Notes: a model not told the origin generated them from the sequence alone. A DNA stretch of 64,000 bases from an uncultured Gammaproteobacteria bacterium (GCA_964345045.1 CAYFPM010000001.1:539264-603263), one strand, 5' to 3'; positions 3,896 to 59,857 are shown, counted from the first letter of the stretch. Numbers and translations are program-made.

Positions 3896-5879
3896 TTTGG
3901 GGTTGGGTTTAATCACCCTATTGCTATGGCCAGGCAAAGAGGTACTAGCTGCCAACGAAATAGAAGTAAACGTACGAATAGAGGGACCTTCGGCCAATAT
4001 AGTTGATCAAGCTGTACAAATCCCAGATAGTTGTACAGTTACAGATTCTGCCGGAGGTACCCACACCTTTACCAATTACGAGGCTATCTGTGCTCTACAA
4101 GTACTAAAAGAAGCCGGTACCATTGATTTTCAAGCTACAGATTGGGGCTGGGCTATGGCACTAGACAGCATAACTAACATAAAAAATGCTAGTGATTGGA
4201 GTGAATCTTGGTTTATTCGTATAAATAGCGCTACTTCCAACTTTGGGATAGATTCTTTGGTACTTAATCCAAATGATCGTTTACTTTTGGGCTACGGTGG
4301 TTGGCCTTTTCCAGAACCATTACTTTTTGAAAAAACAGGTAATGCTGCCAAAATTGGAGATTCAGTTACCTTTGTCACAAAAATTTGGAATGACGACAAT
4401 GGAGGTTACGAAGATTATCAAAGTCCTGTTATTTTTTATCTAAAAGGAACTCCAATCTCATCGGAAAATGGAGAGATCACTTGGACAGTAGACACCATTG
4501 ACACTTTTCCTATTTGGGTAGAAGCAGTAGGAAAAATAAGAAGTCCCAAATATCAATTTGAACCAAAAGCTACAGAAGCTAATTACATTGGAAATCAAGT
4601 AGGACTAAATACCAAAGAAGCTGTTGATTTTCTAGAAAAAAATCAAAACAAAGACGGCTCATTTGCCAAAAACCAATTATTTTCCGACTGGGCCGCGATT
4701 GCTTTGTCTACACAAGACACCAACAATTCTGCCAGACAAAAAATCACTAACTATCTATTACAAGGAAGAAAACCCGGAAAAAATACTACAGATTACGAAA
4801 GAAGAGCTTTGGCACTTTTGACATTAGGAATTAATCCCTATGATGTAAATGGTAGAAATTATATAGAACCAATTGTAAATGATTTTGATGGAACTCAAAT
4901 TGGTAACAAAGATTATGTAAACGATGATATATTTGGGCTACTTGTCTTGAGAAAATCTGGATTTGATTTGAGGGAAGAAATAATAACAAAATTGACCAAC
5001 CATATTCTCTCTAACCAAAATAAAAATGGTTCTTGGGCAGAAAGCACAGATATGACCTCTGCTGCTATCCAAGCCCTTCAAACAGTAGAAGGAGCCACAA
5101 ATGTTTACGAAGCTTTGGAAAAAGCAAAAAGATATATAAGAACCCAACAAAAAACAAATGGTAGTTTCAACAACAGTGCCTACTCTACAACTTGGGCAAT
5201 ACAGGCAATTACCACTTTGGGAATGGATGCTTCTGACTGGTACAAAAACGACAATACTCCTGTAAATTATCTAGCCGCCTTGCAAGAGCCCGATGGAGGT
5301 TTGGGAAAAGATTCTCCTATTGAAATGAGGATTTGGTTAACTTCCTACGCTATTCCAGCTTCTTTAGGCAAAAGCTGGGCAGATTTGATGCATGAATTCC
5401 CAAAAGGAGAAATAAAAATAATTGAGAAAAAAGAAGAAACACAGGAAACTTTGGAAGAAACAAAAGAAGAAATAATCTCAGAAAAAACAGAACTTAATAT
5501 CAAAGAAAATATTAAAGAAGACACTGAACCTTTGGAACCTGAACCAAAATTAAGCGAAGAAGTTTTGAAATTAAAAATTGTAGAAGATATATCGGTAGAA
5601 GAACCTAAACAAAATATTATTAGCACAAACCAAATAGAAAGAGAAAGACCTGTAGAGATAGCAGAAGTTGTAGACAATCAAACCGAAGAAAAGATTATTG
5701 AAAACGAAGATCCTGTAATTCTGGAAACAGTATCTGCCGATGGTTCTGTACTGGCTGCTGCCGATAATTTGCCTACAGAAGGATCAAACAGCGCTAGAAA
5801 TGTATTTCGAACAGCTACTACCCTAGCCACCACCCTAGGAGCCTATTTGGCTTGGAGAGCCTTGCAGACTATAGTGTAA
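3873..5879 (+). CDS. surface protein: DUF4430-like domain + alpha/alpha-toroid (prenyltransferase/terpene-cyclase-like repeats), acidic linker, LPTEG sortase signal; transcobalamin-like
   Basis: signal peptide; repeats KDGSF/KNGSW/TNGSF/PDGGL with aromatic residues; LPTEG at 5769-5783 followed by a hydrophobic stretch and a basic tail. Confidence 0.55.
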   Translation: MNKMKQISLGLGLITLLLWPGKEVLAANEIEVNVRIEGPSANIVDQAVQIPDSCTVTDSAGGTHTFTNYEAICALQVLKEAGTIDFQATDWGWAMALDSITNIKNASDWSESWFIRINSATSNFGIDSLVLNPNDRLLLGYGGWPFPEPLLFEKTGNAAKIGDSVTFVTKIWNDDNGGYEDYQSPVIFYLKGTPISSENGEITWTVDTIDTFPIWVEAVGKIRSPKYQFEPKATEANYIGNQVGLNTKEAVDFLEKNQNKDGSFAKNQLFSDWAAIALSTQDTNNSARQKITNYLLQGRKPGKNTTDYERRALALLTLGINPYDVNGRNYIEPIVNDFDGTQIGNKDYVNDDIFGLLVLRKSGFDLREEIITKLTNHILSNQNKNGSWAESTDMTSAAIQALQTVEGATNVYEALEKAKRYIRTQQKTNGSFNNSAYSTTWAIQAITTLGMDASDWYKNDNTPVNYLAALQEPDGGLGKDSPIEMRIWLTSYAIPASLGKSWADLMHEFPKGEIKIIEKKEETQETLEETKEEIISEKTELNIKENIKEDTEPLEPEPKLSEEVLKLKIVEDISVEEPKQNIISTNQIERERPVEIAEVVDNQTEEKIIENEDPVILETVSADGSVLAAADNLPTEGSNSARNVFRTATTLATTLGAYLAWRALQTIV

Positions 5880-5911: not shown

Positions 5912-6433
5912 ATGAAAAAAAATACTCTAATACTTACAGCCCTATTAATTGCTCTAGGCATTGCTGGTAGGCTACTCCCCCACCCGGCCAATTTTACTCC
6001 AGTAGCAGCGATTGCTCTTTTTGGAGCATTTTACCTGCCCAAACGCTGGGCTGTAGTTTTGCCTCTTTTGGCAATTTTGCTTAGTGATATCTTTATTGGT
6101 TTTTACAATCCAAAGATGATGATCGCTGTTTATGGTAGTTTTGCCATAACTGGTGCTATTGGTCTTTATTTCCGAGAGAAAAAAAGCTTTGCAACAGTAG
6201 CAGCTAGCACCTTGCTTGGTTCGATTATCTTTTTTCTGGTTACCAATGCCGCTGTTTGGGCCTTTGGCACTATGTATACCAAAGATTTAGCAGGACTCTT
6301 GAACAGCTATACCATGGCTATTCCATTTTTTAGAAATAGCTTACTTGGAAATGTGTTTTTTGTAAGTTTGTTGTTTGGTAGTATGGAAATGCTTTTATCC
6401 ACCCAAAAGAAAAAAGCTTCTCTAAAAACTTAA
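5912..6433 (+). CDS. small multi-TM membrane protein, ECF-transporter S-component-like (CbrT-like candidate)
   Basis: ~173 aa, 5-6 TM helices; sits in the putative B12 operon; start taken at MKKNTLIL (5912) rather than the upstream in-frame ORF start. Confidence 0.4.
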   Translation: MKKNTLILTALLIALGIAGRLLPHPANFTPVAAIALFGAFYLPKRWAVVLPLLAILLSDIFIGFYNPKMMIAVYGSFAITGAIGLYFREKKSFATVAASTLLGSIIFFLVTNAAVWAFGTMYTKDLAGLLNSYTMAIPFFRNSLLGNVFFVSLLFGSMEMLLSTQKKKASLKT

Positions 6434-13187: not shown

Positions 13188-16127
13188 TTATGCCCCATGA
13201 CATTTTTTGAATTTCTTTCCGCTCCCACAGTGACAAGGATCATTTCTACCAATTTTTTTACCAGCTTCATCACGCGGTTTTTGCTCTACCAGACCAGCCT
13301 CGCTAGATGTAGTTTTTTTGGCGCCTTTTAGCGTCATTTTGTCATTGGCCATAATAGTAGGCGCTGCTTGTAAGCCAACCCCCACCTTGAAAAATGAATA
13401 AACTACTTCTTTTTGAATATTAGCTTGCAAAGCGTTAAAAAGATTATAAGTTTCCTTTTTGTATTCTATTAGAGGATCACGTTGGCCATAACCTTGCAAA
13501 CCAATACCGGTACGCAAATAATCAATAGAAATAAGATGTTCCACCCACAAATTATCTATGGCTCTCAAAAGAATACTTTTTTCAATTGATTTAAATACTT
13601 TTTCGGAATCTTCTTCCCCTGGAACATTGGCTTTTACTTTTTCTTGAATATTTTCATACTCTCTTTTGGCAATTGCCATCAAAAACTTCACAATTTTGTC
13701 ACGCTGTTTTACATCGTCAAATTTGTCAGAATCACTAATTTTGTCCATAGACAAAATTTTGTTTTCTTCTTCTTTGGAAAGTGGAAACATGGTTTTGCCC
13801 GTTTCTACAATTTCTTTCATATTCCAATCACTCTTTTTTTCACCTGTTTCACTAGCTACCGGATTGGTATGAAAAGAAACTACAAACTCTATTTCTTGTT
13901 CTATCATGTCTAGGATAACCCCTTTCAAAGTCTTGTATGGCCTACCATCTTCTTTGTGACCTTCTGCCCCAACACCAACCTCGGCCAAAGCCGGGTTCTC
14001 ACCTCTCCCAAGGGGAGAGGTCGACACGACCGTAGGGAGTGCGGGAGAGGGGGAAGAAAGAGCTTTATCCTCTGTAGTCATAACTTCTTTTGCAGTCAAC
14101 TCCAAAATATTTCTACGTCTTTGGTAAATAGCTGCGCGCTGCTTGTTTAATACATCATCGTATTCTAGTAAATGTTTTCTAGTGTCAAAATTATGAGCTT
14201 CTACTTTTTTCTGAGCATTCTCGAGCATTTTGGTAATCATCTTTTGCTCAATAGGCATGTCGTCTGGGACGTTTAATCTTTCCATTACAGATTTCATCCT
14301 GTCGCCCGCAAAAATACGCATAAGGTCATCGTCTGTAGACACAAAAAACTGGGTCTCACCTTTGTCTCCCTGGCGAGCCGAACGACCACGCAACTGATTG
14401 TCGATACGGCGAGAATCGTGACGTTCTGTACCAAGTACAAAAAGTCCACCAGCTTCTAAAACTTTGGTCTCTTCTTCTTTGTTTACCGGGCTACCGCCAA
14501 GTTTGATATCTACCCCACGACCAGCCATGTTGGTAGCGAGAGTGATAGCCCCAGGTCTACCAGCTTGAGCTACGATCTCCCCTTCTCTCTCATGGTTCTT
14601 GGCGTTTAAGGCTTCGTGGGCTATGCCACTAGCTTCTAGATAAGCACTTAGCTCTTCGTTTTTTTCTACAGAAATTGTACCTACCAAAATTGGTTGTCCT
14701 TTGGCTTGGCATTCCTTTATTTTTTCTACAATTGCTTTGAATTTGGCTTTTTCATTTTTGTAAATTCTGTCTGGATGATCGATTCTGGCATCAGGTCTAT
14801 TGGTCGGCATCACTACTACATCTAGTCCATAAATGCTTTGGAACTCTTCTTCTTCGGTAATAGCGGTACCGGTCATTCCAGACAATTTGCTGTACATGCG
14901 AAAAAGATTTTGAAAAGTAATAGTTGCCAAAGTTTGACTTTCGCGTTGGATAGATACATTTTCTTTGGCTTCTATAGCCTGGTGTAGACCTTCGCTGTAG
15001 CGACGACCAGGCATTTTGCGACCAGTAAATTCGTCGATAATTATTACTTCGCCACCTTCTACCACATACTCTTTGTCGCGATTAAACAATACTTCTGCCT
15101 TTAGCGCTTGCTCTAGGTGGTGCACAATACGCATACCACCTTCGGCATAGATATTATCTACGCCCAAAGCTTTTTCCATCTTGGCAATTCCCTCTTCTGT
15201 AAGCGTAGCTGCTCGCATTTTTTCGTCTACATTATAGTCTTCGTTTTCTTTTAGTTGTTTTACCAATTTGGCAAATTGATAGTACTGATCTGCAGCCTCG
15301 GCAGCCGGGGCAGAAATAATAAGAGGTGTTCTGGCTTCATCAATTAAAATAGAATCAACTTCGTCGATAATCGCGTAGCTCATTTCTTCTCCCGGACGCA
15401 TTACCATCTCGGACAGATCTTGCACCATGTTGTCACGCAAGTAATCAAAACCAAACTCGTTGTTGGTTCCATAGGTAATGTCTGCTCTGTAAGCTTCTTG
15501 TCTACTAGCCGGACGCAGGTATTCGTCTTCTACTTTAAAACTACCGGTTTCGTCACGTTCTTTGTCTATTTCTCCACCTTGGGCCTTCTCGGAAGCCAAA
15601 GCGGGTGAAGGGCTCGGTAGTCCACTGTCATAAACAAAAGAAACTCTCTGATTTTGAATAATACCTATAGATAATCCTAGGTAATCATAAATTTGTCCCA
15701 TCCACACAGCGTCACGTTTGGCTAGGTAATCGTTGACTGTAATTACGTGTACTCCTTTGCCAGCTAGAGCATTTAGATAAGTTGGCACAGTCGCTACCAA
15801 GGTTTTACCTTCACCAGTACGCATTTCGGCAATCTTGCCGCGGTGCAAAATAATCCCACCAATAAGCTGCACATCGTAGTGGCGCATGCCAGTAGTACGT
15901 TTGGAAGCTTCGCGCACAGTGGCGAGGGCTTCTACCAAAATATCTTCTAGAGTTTCGCCTTTTTCTAGACGAGCTTTAAATTCTGGTGTTTTGGCTTTTA
16001 GTTCGGCCTCGGATAATTTTTCGTAGTCCTTTTCTAGATTATTAATTTTTTCTACCAATGGTTTTATTTCATTAATTATCTTGGCGTTGGTATCGCCCAC
16101 AAAAATTTTTGATAGTAATTTTCTCAT
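13188..16127 (-). CDS. secA: preprotein translocase ATPase SecA (C-terminal zinc finger CHCGSGKKFKKCHGA); contains GC-rich in-frame inserts
   Basis: DEAD motor motifs and the SecA C-terminus; start set at the internal MRKLLSKIF (SecA-typical) rather than the upstream TTG of the ORF track. Confidence 0.93.
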   Translation of the reverse strand: MRKLLSKIFVGDTNAKIINEIKPLVEKINNLEKDYEKLSEAELKAKTPEFKARLEKGETLEDILVEALATVREASKRTTGMRHYDVQLIGGIILHRGKIAEMRTGEGKTLVATVPTYLNALAGKGVHVITVNDYLAKRDAVWMGQIYDYLGLSIGIIQNQRVSFVYDSGLPSPSPALASEKAQGGEIDKERDETGSFKVEDEYLRPASRQEAYRADITYGTNNEFGFDYLRDNMVQDLSEMVMRPGEEMSYAIIDEVDSILIDEARTPLIISAPAAEAADQYYQFAKLVKQLKENEDYNVDEKMRAATLTEEGIAKMEKALGVDNIYAEGGMRIVHHLEQALKAEVLFNRDKEYVVEGGEVIIIDEFTGRKMPGRRYSEGLHQAIEAKENVSIQRESQTLATITFQNLFRMYSKLSGMTGTAITEEEEFQSIYGLDVVVMPTNRPDARIDHPDRIYKNEKAKFKAIVEKIKECQAKGQPILVGTISVEKNEELSAYLEASGIAHEALNAKNHEREGEIVAQAGRPGAITLATNMAGRGVDIKLGGSPVNKEEETKVLEAGGLFVLGTERHDSRRIDNQLRGRSARQGDKGETQFFVSTDDDLMRIFAGDRMKSVMERLNVPDDMPIEQKMITKMLENAQKKVEAHNFDTRKHLLEYDDVLNKQRAAIYQRRRNILELTAKEVMTTEDKALSSPSPALPTVVSTSPLGRGENPALAEVGVGAEGHKEDGRPYKTLKGVILDMIEQEIEFVVSFHTNPVASETGEKKSDWNMKEIVETGKTMFPLSKEEENKILSMDKISDSDKFDDVKQRDKIVKFLMAIAKREYENIQEKVKANVPGEEDSEKVFKSIEKSILLRAIDNLWVEHLISIDYLRTGIGLQGYGQRDPLIEYKKETYNLFNALQANIQKEVVYSFFKVGVGLQAAPTIMANDKMTLKGAKKTTSSEAGLVEQKPRDEAGKKIGRNDPCHCGSGKKFKKCHGA

Positions 16128-16311
16128 AGGTTTAAAAGCCTGCCTGCCGGTAGGCAGGGCTAAAAAAGCTTGCAAGGCTGGCTGATTTATAATAGTTAAC
16201 TGGACTAGCTTAGCACTTTTTTGGCTCTGTGTCTATGGGTAGAAAAATTACTTTACCCTTGACAAAGTGGCTTATTTATGATAAAAATTTGTCAGGAGGC
16301 TCGTCAATTAC

Positions 16312-19318: not shown

Positions 19319-21205
19319 ATGAATCTACTATACGAGAATTTAAAAAGCAACCCAATTGTCTATGTAACTCGAGATATCGAGCGGGCTTTGGGTTTGCCGG
19401 TAGACACACAAGGCTACTATATTATCTCAAACTCTACTCCCTTTGCCAAGAAAATTGCTAACGAAAGAAAAAATATTTTACTGGTAGAAAATAGCGAAAT
19501 TCTAGACACTTGGCAACTATTGGAAAAACCAGAAACCCAAACCTGGATAGAAGCAATCCAACCCTCCCCCCTTGTAGGGGGGAGCAAGAGGGGGGTAAAG
19601 TCAATCGTCGCCTTCAAAAACTCCAAAAAAATAGAAACTATTTGTGAAAAAAATAATTGGGATCTACTAAACCCCAGTGCCGAAGTAATCCAAAATATAG
19701 AAGGTAAAGTAACCCAAGAAGAATTCCTACCAGAACTCTCTCATCTTTACCCACCACATACAATTTCAGAACTACAAACTACAAACTACAAACTACAAAC
19801 TATCTTACAATTCAACCACTCCCACACTGGAGAAGGCACAATATTGCTTGATAATAAAAAAGAATTGGAAGAGTTAAAAAACAAGTTCCCAAAACGTGAG
19901 GTTCGTCTTACAGATTTTGTAAATGGCCAAGTTTATACCAACAATAACGTAGTAGCAAAAAATAAAGTTTTGGTTGGTAATATTAGTAAACAACTAACCG
20001 GCATTAAGCCTTATACAAATAATCCTTTTGCAACTGTTGGTAACGATTGGGGGGCAGCTGTAGATGAACTAAGTGAAAAGCAAGAAAATGAATTCGCCAA
20101 AATTGCCCAAAAAGTTGGTGAAGAATTAAGAAAGAAGAATTGGAAAGGACTGTTTGGAATTGATGTAATCGTAGAAAAAGAAACTGGTAAATTGTACTTA
20201 ATTGAAATAAATGCCAGACAACCACAGTCAGCGGTTTTTGAATCGGCCTTACAGCGAAAAGCGGAAAGCGAAAAGCAAAAAGCGATAACTATTTTTGAAG
20301 CTCATTTGGCAGCTTTGCTAAATTTGGAAGTTAATCTAGAATTAGTTGAAATTGCAGAGGGTTCACAAATTATTGATAGACGAAATGAAGATATAAAATA
20401 CGTCCAAAAACCTGCTATTAGCTTCCAGCCTTTAGCTTTTCGCTCTAATCAAACAACCCTTTCAAAAAAAGGACAATCTGTCTTAAACAACTACCTCCAC
20501 CTCCCCTTCCAAAACACTCAACCAAAAACTCCATATTTTAATAATAAAAAAAGCAAAGTTCGTGGGGGGCTTCGAGCGCTTATAGGCAAAGGTAGTCCAA
20601 CAGAGATTGTAGAAGAAGCCAAAATATTAGCTTTGAAAAAAAAAGTTGATTTTAATAAGTTAGATGAAAAAACTTTAACTAAATTTTTGGTAGACCATAA
20701 TATTGGGGTAGACTGTTCTGGATTTGTTTATCATGTTTTAAAAGCCGAAAATCCTGAAAAAATAAAAAACTTAAAATTTTCTAAATCAAAAAACCCCATC
20801 AGAAATTTTATTCGCAAATTCCGCCCAACCGAAAACACTAGTGTAAAAGTTTTGGCAGATGATAAAAATAGTAAAAAAATAGACTTAAAAGACGTACAGC
20901 CAGGTGACTTGATTACCATAATTGCCGCTGGAAAGAATGCCGATCGTGATCATGTGCTTTTGATAGACGAGGTACAAAAAAATTCTTTTGGTGAAATCAC
21001 TTTTGTGAGGTACACCCACTCACTCGACTGGAGTACCGATGGCAAATACAATCACGGCATTCGCCAAGGAACTATTGAAATTAACGATATAAACAAACCA
21101 CTTATCGAGCAGCATTGGATAGAAAGTGAAAAAACTGGCCAAGAAAACGAAACTTACGGTAGAACCCTAAGTGGCCAAACTTATCTAAGGCGTTTAAAAT
21201 ATTGA
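19319..21205 (+). CDS. fusion protein: ATP-grasp ligase domain + C-terminal NlpC/P60-like cysteine peptidase domain
   Basis: GLFGIDVIVEKETGKLYLIEINARQ (ATP-grasp); GVDCSGFVYHVL ... DHVLLIDEV (Cys/His pair); carries an in-frame GC hairpin and a 7-nt tandem repeat. Confidence 0.5.
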   Translation: MNLLYENLKSNPIVYVTRDIERALGLPVDTQGYYIISNSTPFAKKIANERKNILLVENSEILDTWQLLEKPETQTWIEAIQPSPLVGGSKRGVKSIVAFKNSKKIETICEKNNWDLLNPSAEVIQNIEGKVTQEEFLPELSHLYPPHTISELQTTNYKLQTILQFNHSHTGEGTILLDNKKELEELKNKFPKREVRLTDFVNGQVYTNNNVVAKNKVLVGNISKQLTGIKPYTNNPFATVGNDWGAAVDELSEKQENEFAKIAQKVGEELRKKNWKGLFGIDVIVEKETGKLYLIEINARQPQSAVFESALQRKAESEKQKAITIFEAHLAALLNLEVNLELVEIAEGSQIIDRRNEDIKYVQKPAISFQPLAFRSNQTTLSKKGQSVLNNYLHLPFQNTQPKTPYFNNKKSKVRGGLRALIGKGSPTEIVEEAKILALKKKVDFNKLDEKTLTKFLVDHNIGVDCSGFVYHVLKAENPEKIKNLKFSKSKNPIRNFIRKFRPTENTSVKVLADDKNSKKIDLKDVQPGDLITIIAAGKNADRDHVLLIDEVQKNSFGEITFVRYTHSLDWSTDGKYNHGIRQGTIEINDINKPLIEQHWIESEKTGQENETYGRTLSGQTYLRRLKY

Positions 21206-22749: not shown

Positions 22750-23508
22750 ATGTATCTAAATTGGAACGAACAAACTATCACTGACTTTTCCAACGAAAAT
22801 ATTAACCGCATGTACAATGACGGTTATGTTTTTACTAGACGTGGCAAAGGCGTAATGCAACAAACCAGAAGTGTACGCATTGATCTAAGTAAGTTTGAGC
22901 TCTCTAGCGAAAATAGAAGAATTATACGAAAGGTAGAAGGACTCGAACTAAATATTCTCCCTCTTCCCTACTCTAGCTACACTTGGCAAGTTGGCAAGCT
23001 AGCCAAAGATTTTTATGATGAAAAATTTGGTGTAGGCACTATGAGTGCAAACAAGGTGAAAGAAATGTTAACCGAAGAAAATAAGAGTAATTTTAATGTC
23101 TTATTTTCTTATGTCATTTCGAACCCAAAGGGTGAGAAATCTTTCCGTGAACAAAATGCCCAGACAGAAAGATCTCTGGTCGAGTCTAACGACTCTCCTC
23201 GAGATGACAATAAAATCGGCTACACCATCTGCTACGCCAACGAAAAAATTCTCCACTATTCATATCCTTTTTACAAACTAAACTCTCCCCCTTACGAAGG
23301 GGGAGCTGGAGGGGGTTTACCCCCTAATTTAGGTATGGGTATGATGACCATGGCTGTTAGTGCTGCCAAGGAAAATGGTCTACAATATGTCTACCTTGGA
23401 TCCTTCCAACGCCCAACTGATACTTACAAACTCCAGTTTAGTGGTTTGGAATGGTTTGATGGAGAGAGATGGAGTGAGAATTTGGAGGAGTTGAAAAAAA
23501 CTGTATAA
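22750..23508 (+). CDS. possible aminoacyl-tRNA-protein transferase (Bpt/Ate1-like) carrying an in-frame GC hairpin insert
   Basis: C-terminal YVYLGSFQRPTDTYKLQFSGLEWFDGERW resembles the ATE_C signature; weak. Confidence 0.35.
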   Translation: MYLNWNEQTITDFSNENINRMYNDGYVFTRRGKGVMQQTRSVRIDLSKFELSSENRRIIRKVEGLELNILPLPYSSYTWQVGKLAKDFYDEKFGVGTMSANKVKEMLTEENKSNFNVLFSYVISNPKGEKSFREQNAQTERSLVESNDSPRDDNKIGYTICYANEKILHYSYPFYKLNSPPYEGGAGGGLPPNLGMGMMTMAVSAAKENGLQYVYLGSFQRPTDTYKLQFSGLEWFDGERWSENLEELKKTV

Positions 23509-45617: not shown

Positions 45618-45935
45618 TCATTCCCGCGTACGCGGGAATCCAGTTAGCAAATCATTACCACTCAAGTCCACCCAGTTAGGATTATCTTTTTCAATCAACT
45701 CAACCTTCCAAGCTCGATTCCACTTTTTCAATTGTTTCTCCCTTTTTATGGCATCATTAATACTGGGATACACTTCATAGTAAACCAACATATGGACATT
45801 ATATTTTTTGGTAAAGCCTTCATTCCTACCAAAAGAATGCTCAACCATTCTTCTGGATAAGTTATTAGTAACACCAATATAAAGCGTACCATTACGCTTA
45901 CTTGCTAAAATGTAAACAAAAAAATCCCTCCTCAT
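45618..45935 (-). CDS. GIY-YIG nuclease family protein (UPF0213-like)
   Basis: FFVYILASKRNGTLYIGVTNNLSRRMVEH; its C-terminal FPRTRE is encoded by a GC palindrome. Confidence 0.8.
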   Translation of the reverse strand: MRRDFFVYILASKRNGTLYIGVTNNLSRRMVEHSFGRNEGFTKKYNVHMLVYYEVYPSINDAIKREKQLKKWNRAWKVELIEKDNPNWVDLSGNDLLTGFPRTRE

Positions 45936-45985: not shown

Positions 45986-48900
45986 CTATACAACAACACT
46001 CACCAACCTCCCCTTCACATAAATCACCTTTTTCGGTTCTTTGCCCTCTAGCCATTTTATAACATTCTCTTGTTCTAGAGCTGTTTTCTTCACTTCTTCT
46101 TCACTAATTTCGGCTGGCACTTCTATAGTCGCCCGTACTTTACCATTTACCTGCACCGCGATTTTGACTACATCGTCGACTATTTTTTCTTTGTCATACT
46201 CTGGCCAAACGGATAGTGAAACAAATTCTTCAAATTCAAACATACCCGCAATCTCTTCGGCCAAATGCGGAGCAAATGGAGCCATTAATTTTTGCATGGC
46301 AATAACTGAACTGTAGTTCACTGTAGGAACTTCCTTAGTTCCAATATTCTTTCTTAGGATCATCAATTGGCTCACGGCAGTATTGAATCTCATTCCATCC
46401 AAATCTTCACCAATCTTCTTGATAGATTTGTGCAAAAGCTTTTCAAATTCTGGATTATTCTCACCCATGTACTCCCCATTTTTGTAAACTGCAAAATTGT
46501 CCCCTATATTTTCTTTTAGCTCTGCAAAGTAATCGTACCAACGATCCAAAAATCTGCGTACCCCTTTTACCCCGTCATCATTCCACGGCTTGGTCTGTTC
46601 TAGCGGCCCCATAAACATCTCGTAGGTACGCAAAGTGTCGGCTCCAAACTCATTAACTACATCAGTGGGGTTAATCACATTACCCCAGCGTTTACTCATC
46701 TTTCTATTATCTTCTCCCAATATAAGTCCTTGATGACGATTCTTGGTAAATGGCTCATCGAAATCAATGTAACCTGCATCAAATAAAACCTTGGTAAAAA
46801 AACGTGAGTATAAGAGGTGTCCATTGACATGCTCTTCTCCACCTAGGTAAAAATCTACTGGCATCCAAGCTTTCAAACTTTCTGGAGAAGCAAATTCATT
46901 TTCATTGTTTGGGTCTAGGTAACGGAAGTAATACCAAGAAGAACACATAAATGTATCCAATGTGTCTACCTCGCGCTTCCAACCTGCACCATATTTTTCC
47001 TCTACTCCTTTTTGAAATTCTTCGGAATATGTAAGTGGAGATTGACCAGTTGGTTTAAAATCTACGTCGCTTGGGAGTAATACTGGGAGATCTTTTTCTG
47101 GAACTGGTTTCAAACCAGAAACAAATACTTCTTCCAAAATTGCCGGCTCTACCAAACCAGTCAAATGATCTTCGTTTGCACTGGCATACACTACTCTTGC
47201 ATCAAAGATATTTACTTGTTCGTCTATTTGTTCTTTTTTGATTATAGGATAATTTTTGTCTGCAATAACAACTGTTTCTTGTGGTAAATCTTTTATTGAA
47301 GCAAAATCAAATTGTAATTTTGCTTCATCACGAAATTCTCTTTCTTTTCCATCATTAAATTCTGGTCTTAGCATGGTATCTATCAATACCAATTTGGCAA
47401 TAGGCTGTTTGGTTTTTGCCAAAAGATGAAATGCCACTGGACCACCATGGCTATGAGCTACCACAACGGTATCTTTGTCCAATTTTATATTTTCAAATAA
47501 ATAATTGGCCTGTTCTGTGGCATTTGGTATTTCTGTATTTGGCAAATCTAGCACCACAACTTTGTGACCTTTTGCTTCTACTTGTGCTTTTAACCACGGC
47601 CAAAAATCTGACTCTGCTGTACCACCTCGTCCATGAATAAAAACATATTGTCTTTTGCTCTCTGCTTCTTGTTCATTGACCAGAATTGGCAATGGTGCTC
47701 CCCAAAAACGCTGGCGAGACACAGACCAATCGCGGAGTTTGTATTGAACTTTACTTTCTCCGTAACCACCATCTACAATCTTTTGCAAAATCTTTTTTCT
47801 ACCTTCCTCATAATCAAATCCATCAAATTCTTCTGAATTTATCAATTTAAACTTCTTTTTGTCTTTTTTTATCTCTGCGTAGCTTACAAACTCTTCTTTT
47901 GAATCCACCACACTTATAACTTCCAAACCAAACTTCTTGGCAAATTCATAATCACGTTCGTCTGCTCCAGGCACAGCCATAATAGAACCAGTTCCATAGG
48001 TAGCCAAAACATAATCTGAAATCCACACTGAAATTTCTTTACCGTTTATAGGATTAATAGCTTTTATTCCCTTTAGTTCTACTCCGGTCTTTTCTTTTTG
48101 GGTTTGTCTATCTAATTCTGTTTTCTTGGAAGTTTCTTTTATATACTTTTCAACTTCATCAATATTTTCAACAATTGTTTCTTGTTTCTTGCCTGCCCCG
48201 TTAGCTTGTCTTTCGGGGTTTCTTGTTTCTTCGAGAAGCGTAGCGACGAGCTCATGCTCTGGTGCCAAAACCATAAAAGAAACTCCGTAGATAGTGTCGT
48301 GAGCGGTGGTAAAGACTGGAATTCTGAATTCTGAATTCTGAATTTCAAAATCAATCTCTGCTCCTTCCGAACGCCCAATCCAATTCCTCTGTCTCATCTT
48401 TGTCTCCTCTGGCCAATCAATCTTATCAAGATCTGCCAAAAGTCTGTCGGCATAATCAGTAATTTTCAAATACCATTGCTCCATTTCTTTTTGCACTACC
48501 ACGTCATCACTACGTTCACACTTACCATCTACCACTTGCTCGTTGGCCAGAACTGTTTTACAACCATCACACCAGTTTACACTTTGCTTTTTTCTATAAG
48601 CCAAACCACGCTCGTACATAAGAAGAAAAAACCACTGGGTGAATTTGTAATACCCAGGATCAGAACTACGCACAAACCTATCCCAATCAACCGAAATTCC
48701 AAGAGACTTTACTTGAGACACAAACATCTCACCAGTTTTGTCGATAGTTTCTCTGGGGTGTACATTAGTCTTAATTGCATAATTCTCGGCTGGCAAACCA
48801 AAAGAATCCAAACCAAAAACTTGAAGGACTTTCTTACCCTTCATACGCAAGTAACGAGCATAAATATCGCAGGCAGTATAAACCTCGGCATGGCCTACAT

Positions 48901-49048
48901 GCAGCCCAGATCCAGATGGGTACGGCAGCTGTGGCAGCACATAAGCTTTGTTTTCGGGGGTAGCATCGGCTGGAGTCTTGAACACCTCTTCTTCTTCCCA
49001 TATCTCTTGCCACTTAGCCTCTATCTCTTTTGGGTTATATTCTTTCAT
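45986..49048 (-). CDS. leuS: leucyl-tRNA synthetase with an inserted YdeN/RBBP9-like serine hydrolase domain
   Basis: HVGH class-I motif, CP1 editing domain, KMSKS; residues ~458-645 (YVFIHGRGG...DFWPW...VVAHSHGG) match the Ser_hydrolase fold. Confidence 0.95.
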   Translation of the reverse strand: MKEYNPKEIEAKWQEIWEEEEVFKTPADATPENKAYVLPQLPYPSGSGLHVGHAEVYTACDIYARYLRMKGKKVLQVFGLDSFGLPAENYAIKTNVHPRETIDKTGEMFVSQVKSLGISVDWDRFVRSSDPGYYKFTQWFFLLMYERGLAYRKKQSVNWCDGCKTVLANEQVVDGKCERSDDVVVQKEMEQWYLKITDYADRLLADLDKIDWPEETKMRQRNWIGRSEGAEIDFEIQNSEFRIPVFTTAHDTIYGVSFMVLAPEHELVATLLEETRNPERQANGAGKKQETIVENIDEVEKYIKETSKKTELDRQTQKEKTGVELKGIKAINPINGKEISVWISDYVLATYGTGSIMAVPGADERDYEFAKKFGLEVISVVDSKEEFVSYAEIKKDKKKFKLINSEEFDGFDYEEGRKKILQKIVDGGYGESKVQYKLRDWSVSRQRFWGAPLPILVNEQEAESKRQYVFIHGRGGTAESDFWPWLKAQVEAKGHKVVVLDLPNTEIPNATEQANYLFENIKLDKDTVVVAHSHGGPVAFHLLAKTKQPIAKLVLIDTMLRPEFNDGKEREFRDEAKLQFDFASIKDLPQETVVIADKNYPIIKKEQIDEQVNIFDARVVYASANEDHLTGLVEPAILEEVFVSGLKPVPEKDLPVLLPSDVDFKPTGQSPLTYSEEFQKGVEEKYGAGWKREVDTLDTFMCSSWYYFRYLDPNNENEFASPESLKAWMPVDFYLGGEEHVNGHLLYSRFFTKVLFDAGYIDFDEPFTKNRHQGLILGEDNRKMSKRWGNVINPTDVVNEFGADTLRTYEMFMGPLEQTKPWNDDGVKGVRRFLDRWYDYFAELKENIGDNFAVYKNGEYMGENNPEFEKLLHKSIKKIGEDLDGMRFNTAVSQLMILRKNIGTKEVPTVNYSSVIAMQKLMAPFAPHLAEEIAGMFEFEEFVSLSVWPEYDKEKIVDDVVKIAVQVNGKVRATIEVPAEISEEEVKKTALEQENVIKWLEGKEPKKVIYVKGRLVSVVV

Positions 49049-49059
49049 AAATTATAAAT

Positions 49060-49172
49060 TAATTTTGCTTGCCCGACGAAGCTTTACCGTGTCCGTCCGC
49101 AGCCAAAGGCGTAGGAGGAGCGAAGGCGGGCCATTTTTGTTCTATTTCTTTTGGGTTGTAAATATTATTCAT
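49060..49172 (-). pseudogene. remnant duplicate of the leuS 5' end (MNNIYNPKEIEQKW) fused to a GC-rich element and a stop
   Basis: manual translation; DNA at 49135-49172 aligns with 49010-49048. Confidence 0.4.
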
Positions 49173-49254
49173 ATAGTTTTAACTTTTAGCTTATTCTAGT
49201 TAAATTAGCCTTTTTTTGCAAGTATGATATAGTTTATTAAATATAATCAAAATT

Positions 49255-49938
49255 ATGGAAAGACTACATTCAGAAAGGAGATTAGGAGAGATAGAAGGAG
49301 ATAGTATTAATACTAATGAAAATTCCCGTTTTGAAAAAACCAAAGAAGAACAAGCTTTGGTAGAGAGAGCTGTGGCTGGAGATAGAGAAGCTTTTTCTGC
49401 TTTGGTAATTGAAAACCAAAATATTGTAGAAGCTAGCTTGAGAGCAATAGTTACAGGACTTAGTGATGAGGATGTAGAAGATATTATTTCAACTACCTGG
49501 CTCAAAGCTCTAAATAACATAGATTCTTTCGAGCCACAGGCAAAATTTTCTACTTGGCTTACCCAAATAGCAAAAAATACAGCTTTAGACAGGTTAAGAA
49601 AAAAGAGCAATAAAGATAGAATTATTTCTGGTAGTGCAAATGTCCCAGTCCATGATTCAGAAAATTCCCCAGAATTAATAAACGTAACAGCTGACCCAAA
49701 GGCATTTTTGCCAGATGAAGAGTATTCTTCTAGAGAAGGGATTCATTTACTTAGAAAAGCAATAAATGAATTACCAGAATCATTAAAAAAACCACTGTTA
49801 ATGACCATGTTTGAAGATAAAGACTATGATACTATTGCCGAAGAACTTGGTATCACGAAGCAAGCGCTAAAAAATAGAATCCACCGTGCCAGAACTGAAA
49901 TAAAAGACAAAATTTCTAAAAGAGAAAATTCGCACTAA
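49255..49938 (+). CDS. RNA polymerase sigma-70 family (ECF-type) sigma factor
   Basis: region 2 (VERAVAGDREAFSALV...) and region 4 (TIAEELGITKQALKNRIHRAR). Confidence 0.7.
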   Translation: MERLHSERRLGEIEGDSINTNENSRFEKTKEEQALVERAVAGDREAFSALVIENQNIVEASLRAIVTGLSDEDVEDIISTTWLKALNNIDSFEPQAKFSTWLTQIAKNTALDRLRKKSNKDRIISGSANVPVHDSENSPELINVTADPKAFLPDEEYSSREGIHLLRKAINELPESLKKPLLMTMFEDKDYDTIAEELGITKQALKNRIHRARTEIKDKISKRENSH

Positions 49939-50827: not shown

Positions 50828-51535
50828 ATGGAAGGAAAAGAGCATCCCCAAGGAACTCAACCACCAGTGGAGGAGCAAGGAGAAGAAATTAAGGAGAAAA
50901 AAGAAAAAAAACCAGTGGATCCAGAATTAGCAGAGGCTCGCAAAAAAGAATTGAAAGAATTACTTGCTGGAAAAGAAATACAAGCTTACTTACTAAAATA
51001 TATAAATAAATACCATAGCCCCTTATCTTACATAGCAGATGATATTGTTCAAACAGTTTTATTAAAAGCCTTAAACCCCAAAAACCCTTTTAATGGAGAA
51101 TCTAATCCCAAAACTTGGATTCTAGCTATAGCAAGAAATACATGTTTGGAAAAAGCTCGCACTAGAAAAAAACAAATAGAACGTACAGCTCAATCTAAAC
51201 TATTAGATTTATTAGAAGATGAATCTCCTAAAACTCAATTGGAACAAGGGGCTTTTACCAAAGAACAAAAACGGATTCTCCTACAAGCTATTGAAGCTAC
51301 TTTGAGGGTAGAAGATAAACTAATAATGATGATGTTTTATAACGATGGTAAAACTTCTAAAGAAATAAGTGAAATTTTAGACATAACTCCCGTAGCTGTA
51401 CGCCAAAGACTTAATAGAGCTAGAAAAGAAATAAAAAAATATATAAAAACGATTGAGAAAGGAAGGATTCCTCTAGACAAAGACTCCTATATAGAACACT
51501 ACCCAGAAAAATTGGTGGGGCATAAAGGAGTTTAA
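50828..51535 (+). CDS. RNA polymerase sigma-70 family (ECF-type) sigma factor with an N-terminal low-complexity extension
   Basis: region 2 (DIVQTVLLKAL...WILAIARN) and region 4 (ISEILDITPVAVRQRLNRARKEIK). Confidence 0.65.
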   Translation: MEGKEHPQGTQPPVEEQGEEIKEKKEKKPVDPELAEARKKELKELLAGKEIQAYLLKYINKYHSPLSYIADDIVQTVLLKALNPKNPFNGESNPKTWILAIARNTCLEKARTRKKQIERTAQSKLLDLLEDESPKTQLEQGAFTKEQKRILLQAIEATLRVEDKLIMMMFYNDGKTSKEISEILDITPVAVRQRLNRARKEIKKYIKTIEKGRIPLDKDSYIEHYPEKLVGHKGV

Positions 51536-55360: not shown

Positions 55361-55619
55361 AAGTTAAATCAACTTATTTAAGATTATACTTTATATAATT
55401 TTATAAGCAAGAACTCCTAGAACACGCTACTACTATCGCAACCTCACACTAGGGGTTGGAGCCTAATGTAATGTGCGAGATTGCCATCCTTCGGCTCCGC
55501 TCAGGACAGGCTCAGGTCTTGCCGACCTACTCGCAATGACAGAAACAAAGAGAGATAACCTAAAAAAAACCCTGAGCTTGAGCCCAGGATTGTTTTAATG
55601 ATTTCAAGATTTGATGTTT

Positions 55620-58436: not shown

Positions 58437-58485
58437 GATCAAATGATAATGGCGCATTTGCGCCCAACACAAGAGGAGTACCACA

Positions 58486-59736
58486 GTGTCTCACGAGAAG
58501 GAAGGGCCTCGAAGGCCAATCGACATCATCCAAGAATACTCACTCCCGCTCATCGCGGGGGTGATCGGTGCAATGTTGTGGGCCAATCTGAGCCCACACT
58601 CCTACCACGAGTTCATCCACTTCTCTCCGTTCGCGGAGGGGAACCCCCTGCACGTACTGAACTTCCACTTCCTGATGAACGACTTCGTGATGGTCTTCTT
58701 CTTCGGAATCGCTACCAAGGAGATCACCGAAGCCTGCCTCCCCGAAGGAGACCTCAACCCTCCGAGGAAGGCAGTGAACCCGCTGCTGGGAACGCTGGGA
58801 GGAGTGATTGGACCCATCGCGGTCTACAAACTCTACGTCTACTTCACGGGTGCCGAAGCCATCAGCGAAGGCTGGGGCATCCCCACCGCAACTGACATCG
58901 CGCTCGCGTGGCTACTGGCTCGTGTAGTTTTCGGGAAGAATCACCCAGCAGTGAGCTTCCTGCTCCTGTTGGCCGTGGCCGACGACGGACTCGGACTCGG
59001 CATCATCGCCGTCTTCTACCCAGATCCTTCCCACCCGGTGCAGCCAGCCTACTTGGTACTGGTGGCCATCGCCATGGCTGGCGCGTACTACTTGCGAAGG
59101 AAGAATGTACAGAACTACGGGGTCTACCTCGTAGGGCCAGGAGTTCTCTCCTGGGCCGGCCTTTTCCTGGCACACCTCCACCCAGCGCTCGCGCTGGTGT
59201 TCGTGGTTCCTTTCTTGCCCAACATGGGTCATGACGACGGCATGTACGCGGAGATGAGTACTGGAAAAACGTACCTCGATCCGCTCAACAAGTTCGAACA
59301 CGCTGTCAAGCTGCCAGTGGATCTCGGACTCTTCGGGTTCGGCCTGGCCAACGCTGGGGTGGAGTTCTCGAGCATGGGTCATGGTACCTGGGCAGTTCTG
59401 GCCGGGCTGCTACTCGGCAAGACTGTAGGTATCTTCGGCTTCTCGATGCTCGGCCACCTGAGTGGCAAGGCGCCCCTCCCCGAAGGGATGCGCTGGAACC
59501 ACTTGCTGGTCGCCGGCATCGTGGCAGGTCTCGGTCTGACCGTAGCTCTGTTCGTGGCAGGAGTCGCGTTCACCGAACCTATGTTGCAGGGTGCGGCCAA
59601 GATGGGTGCACTGCTTTCGGCATTCATTGCCCCCATCGCGGTCGTGGCAGGTTTCGTCCTGCGTGTGAAGGACGAAGACAAATCACCCGTCGATCTGAGC
59701 AGTGCTGCCGAAGCGCCAGCCACCAGCAGCAGCTGA
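58486..59736 (+). CDS. nhaA: Na+/H+ antiporter NhaA (GTG start); GC-rich island gene
   Basis: GIPTATDIALAWLLA and LLLLAVADDGLGLGIIAVFY signatures; SD AAGAGGAG at 58471-58478. Confidence 0.85.
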   Translation: MSHEKEGPRRPIDIIQEYSLPLIAGVIGAMLWANLSPHSYHEFIHFSPFAEGNPLHVLNFHFLMNDFVMVFFFGIATKEITEACLPEGDLNPPRKAVNPLLGTLGGVIGPIAVYKLYVYFTGAEAISEGWGIPTATDIALAWLLARVVFGKNHPAVSFLLLLAVADDGLGLGIIAVFYPDPSHPVQPAYLVLVAIAMAGAYYLRRKNVQNYGVYLVGPGVLSWAGLFLAHLHPALALVFVVPFLPNMGHDDGMYAEMSTGKTYLDPLNKFEHAVKLPVDLGLFGFGLANAGVEFSSMGHGTWAVLAGLLLGKTVGIFGFSMLGHLSGKAPLPEGMRWNHLLVAGIVAGLGLTVALFVAGVAFTEPMLQGAAKMGALLSAFIAPIAVVAGFVLRVKDEDKSPVDLSSAAEAPATSSS

Positions 59737-59857
59737 CCCCCACCCACCGCGTTTCCCTTCTGGTATTCTCCAGGAAGCTGTTAGAGGACACAGCGAACAC
59801 GCTATTCATTCCTATCTGTCCTCATTCCCTTTGCCCTTAAAAATATTTTAAGATCAA

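Follow-up and report, generated by a model that had tools for sequence, protein, structure and literature searches.

The start of leuS, the gene of leucyl-tRNA synthetase, is present twice in a 64,000-nt stretch of DNA deposited under an uncultured Gammaproteobacteria bacterium (GCA_964345045.1, CAYFPM010000001.1:539264-603263; this whole stretch is called the window below), and between the two copies lies a GC-rich segment that belongs to a family of small hairpin-forming repeats, here named E. The window belongs to a metagenome contig of Candidatus Magasanikbacteria (Patescibacteria); the nearest public loci are found in assemblies of this group and share 72-79% of the first 260 residues of LeuS. 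With moderate confidence we read the arrangement as the scar of a mobile element and of recombination that relocated the leuS start, E marking the junction and a second, complete start serving the gene. This reading is carried by the anatomy of the locus, the E family and the covariation in its stem, the recurrence of the same layout in relatives, the synonymous-only divergence between paired copies, the exchange of one module between two lineages and the imported segments in two relatives, L004 and L015 (L-numbers denote related loci from public assemblies). For the window module itself we infer a history like that in L004 and L015. The recurrent association of a small hairpin repeat with homeologous gene-end duplication in Magasanikbacteria is apparently undescribed.

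The leuS start region and its repeat

The features of the locus are collected in Table 1. The downstream copy (copy B) matches the N-termini of homologous LeuS proteins end to end, and the protein that it opens has all LeuRS domains (Pfam tRNA-synt_1, editing and anticodon domains). The upstream copy (copy A) retains each invariant N-terminal residue of LeuS, and 20 nt of leader separate its ATG (49172) from a promoter-like site. That site fits the pattern cTTGCAt-N17-TAAAATAag upstream of leuS in relatives, and the position of the displaced ATG relative to it is the start position in uninterrupted relatives. The GC content of the segment between the copies is 0.66, compared with 0.39 for the window, and together with the adjoining spacer the segment sets the two copies 82 nt apart. 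Read-through of copy A into E gives an upstream open reading frame (uORF) of 37 codons, the stop codon (TAA) of which lies 10 nt ahead of the leuS ATG at 49048. This uORF is annotated as a gene in public assemblies and is probably translated from the native promoter and start.

A first-pass annotation of the window had described a leuS 5' end duplicated and split by a GC-rich segment, and had named a lack of similarity between the two N-terminal regions on careful alignment as a refutation. The similarity goes beyond chance: the leuS start and the 205-nt upstream region give a local alignment score of 30, and among 1000 shuffles (mean 15.2, maximum 28) none reached it. The same annotation took the upstream copy for the ancestral, displaced start, the downstream copy for a re-created functional N-terminus and the GC-rich segment for an inserted element; the promoter spacing, the comparison with homologues and the membership in the E family agree with it on all three. 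The segment is indeed present, only its borders had been placed at 49071-49133, about 3-4 nt off. The arrangement is not an assembly artefact, since ENA ERZ930068 (run ERR2281803) and Logan ERR2281802, assembled independently from two sequencing runs, agree at all of 261 nt around the module.

Table 1. Features of the leuS locus in the window; all coordinates are given for the minus strand.
Feature	Position	Strand	Length	Remarks
Promoter-like TTGCAA-17 nt-TAGAAT	49193..49221	-		Upstream of displaced start; consensus match only
Displaced leuS start, copy A, ATG...TGG	49131..49172	-	42 nt	MNNIYNPKEIEQKW; alignment to working start
uORF	49059..49172	-	37 codons	MNNIYNPKEIEQKW + PAFAPPTPLAADGHGKASSGKQN, then stop; remnant and read-through of GC element
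Composite GC-rich hairpin element E	49067..49130	-	64 nt	Aligned to short and composite copies
Outer E unit, arms	49120-49130 and 49067-49086	-		Nested inner unit at 49087-49119
AT-rich spacer between E and working start	49049..49066	-	18 nt
Working leuS start, copy B, ATG...TGG	49010..49048	-		MKEYNPKEIEAKW
leuS coding sequence	45986..49048	-	1020 aa	Begins MKEYNPKEIEAKWQ
In-frame insert in the LeuS editing-domain region	48176..48229	-	54 nt / 18 aa	ETRNPERQANGAGKKQET; unique to window genome
E-like hairpin	48191-48217	-	27 nt	Between two perfect 14-nt repeats AAGAAACAAGAAAC

E is a hairpin-forming repeat of about 31 nt with the consensus CCCGTCTCCGCTAAAGCTaCGCCGGGTAAAC, and it is found in relatives at the same leuS site. 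Twelve copies of its short form can be aligned, and their stem consists of 6 outer and 2 inner base pairs. In 6 of these 8 pairs both sides have changed, a covariation that none of 500 shuffles equalled, and 89.6% of the alignment cells are paired, as against 28-47% with the partner slid. In the long forms, which reach 57-64 nt, one unit is nested inside the loop of another; the composite copies of the window, of the L026 leuS leader and of an internal leuS site in L008 can be aligned along their full length. Searches for other copies of the GC segment, as had been suggested, returned none in the 64-kb window at up to 3 mismatches. A covariance model built from the short copies gave no strong match in the window and also misses the nested window copy itself. 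A scan of viral contigs with the E consensus gave no match. Rfam gave no match in the window at the gathering threshold, and for 48900-49350 one at chance level (E = 5.3). The literature search turned up no account of an element or leader like this.

The module is not a private scar: the layout of a leuS start copy ending with the Trp codon TGG, E, an AT-rich spacer and the ATG occurs, with the same junction after TGG, in at least eight other Candidatus Magasanikbacteria lineages. The carriers are L163, L004, L005 (two modules in tandem), L008, L015, L024 and L025, together with a degenerate copy in L003; L163 is a close relative with 73% identity to the first 400 LeuS residues of the window. 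Altogether about 9 of about 45 lineages, spread across four clades, have the module, and it is missing in close relatives of carriers (L006, L007, L084, L107, L012, L027, L105). The spacers of the relatives are 8-18 nt long. The remnants retain the residues that are invariant in LeuS (Y, P, K, I, E, K, W); their start codon is ATA in L024 and in the outer L005 copy. Measured from the real ATG, all uORF stops lie in a range from 13 nt ahead of it to 4 nt beyond its start, in the latter case overlapping it, as expected from composition given an AT-rich spacer. The E-encoded part of the uORF varies in frame and sequence among lineages, and leucine is scarce in the uORFs (one codon in 37 in the window, 0-3 in relatives).

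The spacer of L005 and L008, GAGTAAAATATATTTAGT, repeats the final two codons of the upstream inositol-monophosphatase gene together with its intergenic region, judging from L004 (GAGTAAAATTTATGTCT), so that the repeated unit is about 56 nt long and abuts E on both sides. In L026 and L110 E is taken to lie in the leader, possibly preceded by a truncated remnant. A 12-nt duplication considered for these two loci was dropped, since ATGAAAAACTAT could be a chance match or belong to a promoter. Two LeuS N-terminal types are present in Magasanikbacteria, MxxY(N/D)PKxIExKW and MKxY(K/Q)(E/D)FLxxxGExKW, and in a neighbour-joining tree of the rest of the protein the second is spread across at least three clades (loci listed for the types: L009, L015, L025, L027, L032, L105, L107, L110, L116).

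Further E copies were found with a covariance model of E. Outside leuS, modules were found at two gene ends only. At the 5' end of dnaK in L165 (3160-3310) the order is ATGCCTAAAATTCTCGGAA, E, a 33-nt spacer and ATGAGCAAGATATTAGGT, the remnant reading MPKILG and the working copy MSKILGIDLG. At the 3' end of gdh in L026 (1780-1960) a reverse-orientation E lies just past the stop codon and is followed by a second gdh C-terminus and the native terminator (KAIERVASKM-stop, E, KAIERVAEKIQI-stop); among roughly 23 gdh 3' ends compared, L026 is the only one with E and a duplicated C-terminus. At all three genes the CCCG end of E points toward the remnant, and the TAAAC or CAAGC end toward the spacer and the working copy.

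E is also found in frame within leuS, as a 20-aa insert in L008 and one of about 17 aa in L021, and the 18-aa insert of the window contains an E-like unit. These internal copies have no long flanking duplication. The membership of the window unit in the E family is weak and would depend on a similar 5' CCCG and 3' CGGGGCAGGC tail. Its 14-nt repeats do not represent a simple target duplication, as excising one repeat together with the element (41 nt) breaks the frame.

Divergence between the copies and signs of recombination

When the remnant and the working copy were compared in eight pooled pairs, the proportion of nonsynonymous differences (pN) was 0.17 and that of synonymous differences (pS) 0.90 (Fisher P about 1e-21). 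The invariant residues are unhit in all 8 pairs, and nearly all differences are synonymous or fall at naturally variable residues. The gdh remnant of L026 differs from its working copy by 0 nonsynonymous and 7 synonymous changes; because it lies past the stop codon, selection on a peptide is impossible there. The synonymous-only pattern, this remnant included, implies that both copies belonged to working genes until recently, and simple decay following in-place duplication is unlikely.

The remnants also resemble the working starts of other lineages (83-92% identity, best of 39 comparisons and thus somewhat inflated) more than their own working starts (56-79%). The L025 remnant is 92% identical to L116 and 65% to its own working start; the corresponding figures are 90% (L090) and 56% for L015, 90% (L006) and 72% for L008, 90% (L005) and 79% for L004, and 83% (L111) and 71% for the window. 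The early proposal that a duplication of roughly 40 bp re-created the N-terminus was right about the re-created start; a simple duplication in place is at odds with the synonymous differences and with remnants closer to other lineages.

Exchange of the module is seen most directly in L004 and L005, which share 112 consecutive identical nt; the block takes in the final 24 nt of the remnant, then E and the spacer, and extends 30 nt into the next copy. Around this block the neighbouring leuS sequence is ~84% identical between the two, and the upstream flanks differ. At the sequence level this shows that the 112-nt module was recently exchanged between the L004 and L005 lineages. The tandem arrangement of L005 is an L008-like module whose remnant received an L004-type module by recombination. 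The joined strains share only 3 nt at the junctions, so k-mer confusion cannot have produced them.

In two relatives the working 5' segment beside E looks imported and the upstream copy native. L005, L007 and L008 are 91-93% alike at the leuS start, whereas nt 1-140 of the L004 gene are only 76-79% identical to L005 and L008 (76% vs L005, P = 9e-5; vs L008, P = 5e-3), compared with 89% for nt 140-660. Similarly, L015 and L012 are 64-71% identical in both of the opening 90-nt windows (together nt 1-135) but 89-94% past ~nt 135; the working 5' segment of L015 has a different N-terminal type (YKDFLENKGEKKW), and its remnant has the type of L012. These imported-looking segments reach ~100-140 nt beyond the repeat. 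Other pairs of like closeness display little or no drop in identity at the 5' end.

The following sequence of events would account for these observations. At the E junction leuS would have been cut off from its original start region, made up of the promoter, a short leader and codons 1-14, and a second start region beyond E (AT spacer, ATG and codons 1-13) would have taken over. E would mark the end of a diverged start or stop segment that recombined into the gene and pushed the resident end aside; where relatives permit the test, the segment on the TAAAC/CAAGC side appears to be the homeologous incoming allele and the CCCG-side remnant the resident start. Once finished, a module could enter a naive genome by ordinary double crossover, with homology on the left provided by the remnant and on the right by the gene body, and recombination between the two copies could remove it cleanly. 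Such spread and loss would produce the same TGG junction in distant lineages, the patchy distribution and the tandem L005 module, as well as native-looking remnants, foreign-looking working 5' segments and scattered LeuS N-terminal types. Ribosomes starting at the old ATG would presumably melt the hairpin and terminate beside the leuS start, and coupling between the uORF and leuS would be a tolerated side effect rather than something purposeful or selected.

If this is correct, an essential gene can have its start relocated by a tiny non-coding repeat, with a translatable decoy left behind that misleads gene callers. It would also be a concrete example of diverged lineages recombining in the uncultivated Patescibacteria, in which DNA exchange is hard to demonstrate, and would offer an explanation of why the two LeuS N-terminal types lie scattered across the tree. 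The selfish palindromes in coding genes known from Rickettsia would be extended to a second group with reduced genomes, the duplicated homeologous gene ends being new. A further-reaching idea, offered only tentatively, is that E could be the leading end of an undescribed route of DNA movement, in which a hairpin of ~30 nt marks incoming diverged fragments and brings replacement gene ends, either a start plus leader or a stop plus trailer, into essential genes such as leuS, dnaK and gdh. The resident end would be displaced and the module would spread through its remnant homology arm. A hairpin-specific nuclease might drive the process, and E would be a minimal, protein-free element for replacing gene ends that gives rise to mosaic N-termini in bacteria of the candidate phyla radiation (CPR).

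Several points weigh against the recombination scar. Among distant lineages generally, leuS diverges more in its first 140 nt than further on, which weakens the test for imported segments; the nearest relatives of the window genome have only about 73-79% amino-acid identity, and with no closer relative and this general 5' divergence the test is unusable for the window itself. Recombination of gene ends does not explain the constant orientation of E, with CCCG toward the remnant, nor why E is rare elsewhere. In ~88 kb of L163-L168 sequence, which includes ~59 kb from four new contigs away from leuS, the weak dnaK copy of L165 was the sole covariance-model match below E = 0.1 apart from the known L163 leuS copy. 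Such rarity outside gene ends is unusual for a selfish repeat, and the sampled loci are biased, being centred on leuS. No transposase, recombinase or nuclease could be linked to E. The predicted fold of the window copy is not better than that of shuffled sequence (z = +1.2 to +1.4), which rules out a strong RNA structure in this copy. Finally, the constant TGG junction, the conserved hairpin and the intact uORFs with stops by the ATG fit a selected leader as well.

Alternative explanations and known systems

The explanation that survives best next to the recombination scar, unlikely as we hold it to be, is that the uORF and the hairpin form a cis-regulatory leader of leuS, acting by translational coupling or attenuation, which goes back to a single ancient duplication and was passed on vertically, with many losses. 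Consistent with this are the identical junction in lineages of four clades, the compensatory changes that preserve the stem at one orthologous position, the start codon and all invariant residues retained in the remnants of 7 of the 9 modules, the stops within 13 nt upstream of the real ATG or overlapping it, and the rarity of E elsewhere. The first-pass annotation had itself noted that the same arrangement in relatives would point to a leader peptide, and the arrangement does recur. The leader is nevertheless weakened by the relatives without the module that stand close to carriers (L007 to L005; L107 and L012 to L015; L027 and L105 to L025), by the remnant ATGs lost in L024 and the outer L005 copy, and by the degenerate L003 and the tandem L005 modules.

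Nor is the E-encoded part of the uORF conserved in frame or sequence, and E also occurs in frame within coding sequence. The gdh remnant, past its stop codon, has the same synonymous-only pattern. Leader peptides and attenuators known from operons for amino acids and from genes for aminoacyl-tRNA synthetases (pheL-pheST, leuL), as well as T-box leaders, are similar in that promoter and synthetase gene are separated by a hairpin and a short ORF. The leuS module, however, has no series of cognate codons (Leu occurs once in 37), no terminator/antiterminator pair, no U-tract, no T-box and no Rfam match, no terminator-like site was found within 48900-49400, and its ORF duplicates the start of the very gene that it precedes. 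A leader-peptide role is thus less likely than a recombination scar.

Plain transposition, in which E was inserted after codon 13, duplicated about 50-57 bp of target and left two copies to diverge in place, is quite improbable, even though imperfect direct repeats of about 47-60 nt directly flank E at leuS and gdh, the repeat of L005 and L008 takes in the stop codon of the upstream gene and the intergenic region, and some insertion sequences of the IS1634 type make long and variable target duplications. Decay in place should gather nonsynonymous changes, which the pN and pS values and the unhit invariant residues of the 8 pairs contradict. The likeness of remnants to working alleles of other lineages, the internal in-frame copies lacking a long duplication and the extension of the imported segments of L004 and L015 about 100-140 nt past the repeat are likewise not what a target duplication would leave.

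A chimeric assembly, or a ribosome hop from the upstream to the downstream TGG as in the programmed bypassing of T4 gene 60, is hardly credible: matching TGG codons do close both copies and bypassed GC-rich inserts are known from AT-rich genes of yeast mitochondria, but the two assemblies agree and the layout recurs across many public assemblies, the would-be take-off codon is followed by CCC and not by a stop, the gap would be about 120 nt, and the downstream copy opens with an ATG of its own and has a complete N-terminus.

Among known repeats, E is reminiscent of the Rickettsia palindromic elements (RPEs), which are short palindromes in a small AT-rich genome, tolerated in frame in essential genes; in-frame insertion into a coding gene, judged against all homologues, is seen in L008, in L021 and in the window LeuS. 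RPEs are about 100-150 bp long compared with ~31 nt (31-64 nt) for E, and the two are set apart by length and description, their hosts being unrelated. We know of no RPEs between duplicated gene ends or relocating start codons. E also resembles repetitive extragenic palindromic (REP) sequences and their compound forms, bacterial interspersed mosaic elements (BIMEs) and REP doublets forming hairpins (REPINs), in being a GC-rich imperfect palindrome of ~30 nt with compensatory changes, single or nested and clustered. REPs are mobilised by REP-associated tyrosine transposases (RAYTs), lie outside genes in tens to hundreds of copies and have a conserved GTAG head, and copies of REP are known to occur where duplications are joined. 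In contrast, E is rare (one composite and one E-like unit in 64 kb), is situated at gene ends or within coding sequence and carries TAAAC or CAAGC as its 3' tail, and GTAG is not visible in E alignments. No RAYT gene was seen, not all window ORFs having been scanned for PF01797. E does not look like a MITE (a miniature transposable element with inverted repeats): its sole inverted repeat is a 6-bp stem, the flanking repeats are 47-60 nt long and diverged, or absent, and no parent insertion sequence was found.

Closer in outcome are integrative elements that carry a replacement gene end, such as prophage e14 and phage 21 in icd or the islands in tRNA genes. There too the displaced resident end persists as a fragment, and the element-side copy restores the gene with mainly synonymous differences from the resident copy. 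Elements of the e14/phage 21 type are kilobases long and encode an integrase, whereas here just 31-64 nt of E (82 nt with the spacer) lie between the copies and there is no recombinase. Homology-facilitated illegitimate recombination similarly anchors diverged DNA by homology on one side and joins it without homology on the other, and the competence gene comEC lies near leuS. The junctions of that process are scattered, while those described here are always at the CCCG end of one element family.

Side observations in the window and its relatives

Scans at the DNA and protein level for more duplications bridged by a GC island detected only the leuS cases and true protein repeats. Split SecA and LeuS genes of relatives were considered as extra modules and proved to be plain frameshifts. 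These single-frameshift splits of leuS/secA are located at L163 ~6260-6330, L165 ~11260, L167 ~11400, L168 ~4680 and L021 ~4800-4925, and they could be assembly errors or real pseudogenisation.

Other in-frame GC-rich hairpin islands are present in the window at 19553-19600 (+), 23283-23325 (+) and 13964-14057 (-). Their hosts are an ATP-grasp protein, an unidentified ORF and SecA (SSPSPALPTVVSTSPLGRGENPALAEVGVGAEG), and some of the islands have an E-like GGGTAAA(C/G) tail. The window genome appears tolerant of many in-frame GC hairpin inserts. A near-perfect GC palindrome, GCCCTGCCTACCGGCAGGCAGGC, at 16138-16160 (-) lies 10 nt upstream of the SecA ATG (16127) and is followed by TTTTAAACCT; a near-identical palindrome is found upstream of leuS in L090, and no duplicated SecA start was seen. 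The intergenic sequence gtcattgcgag...ggcaatctcgc at 55480-55545 (-) is of a type widespread in uncultivated bacteria. A related sequence, gatccctcgacttcgctcgggatgacaaac, is present in the L164 leuS leader, and a similar unit occurs upstream of L165 dnaK.

LeuS of the window contains an alpha/beta-hydrolase domain (Ser_hydrolase/YdeN-like; Pfam PF00561, PF06821, PF12697) after the editing domain, at 47180-47644 (-), residues ~469-623, and a literature search found no description of it. The hydrolase insert is also visible in L008, and Pfam matches suggest it in P0001/L163, the close relative with the leuS module, and in P0004/L021. In L166 a Ser_hydrolase gene directly follows a fragment of a class I tRNA synthetase, either LeuS or another.

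Downstream of leuS, a GIY-YIG-only protein of 105 aa is encoded ~50 nt away (45618-45935, -), with a homologue downstream of leuS in L003 (53% identity). It might be a nuclease that stands by itself; as this neighbour recurs in L003 only, the gene was rejected as an E-linked nuclease. The comEC gene mentioned above lies 400 nt downstream of leuS. On the other side two genes for sigma-70 factors of the extracytoplasmic function (ECF) type, 49255-49938 (+) and 50828-51535 (+), flank an inositol-monophosphatase gene. The first of them, divergent from leuS, looks inserted, because the inositol-monophosphatase gene directly precedes leuS in many relatives. Two stretches of much higher GC content with long ORFs, ~770-1950 and ~58440-59770, may be horizontally acquired genes.

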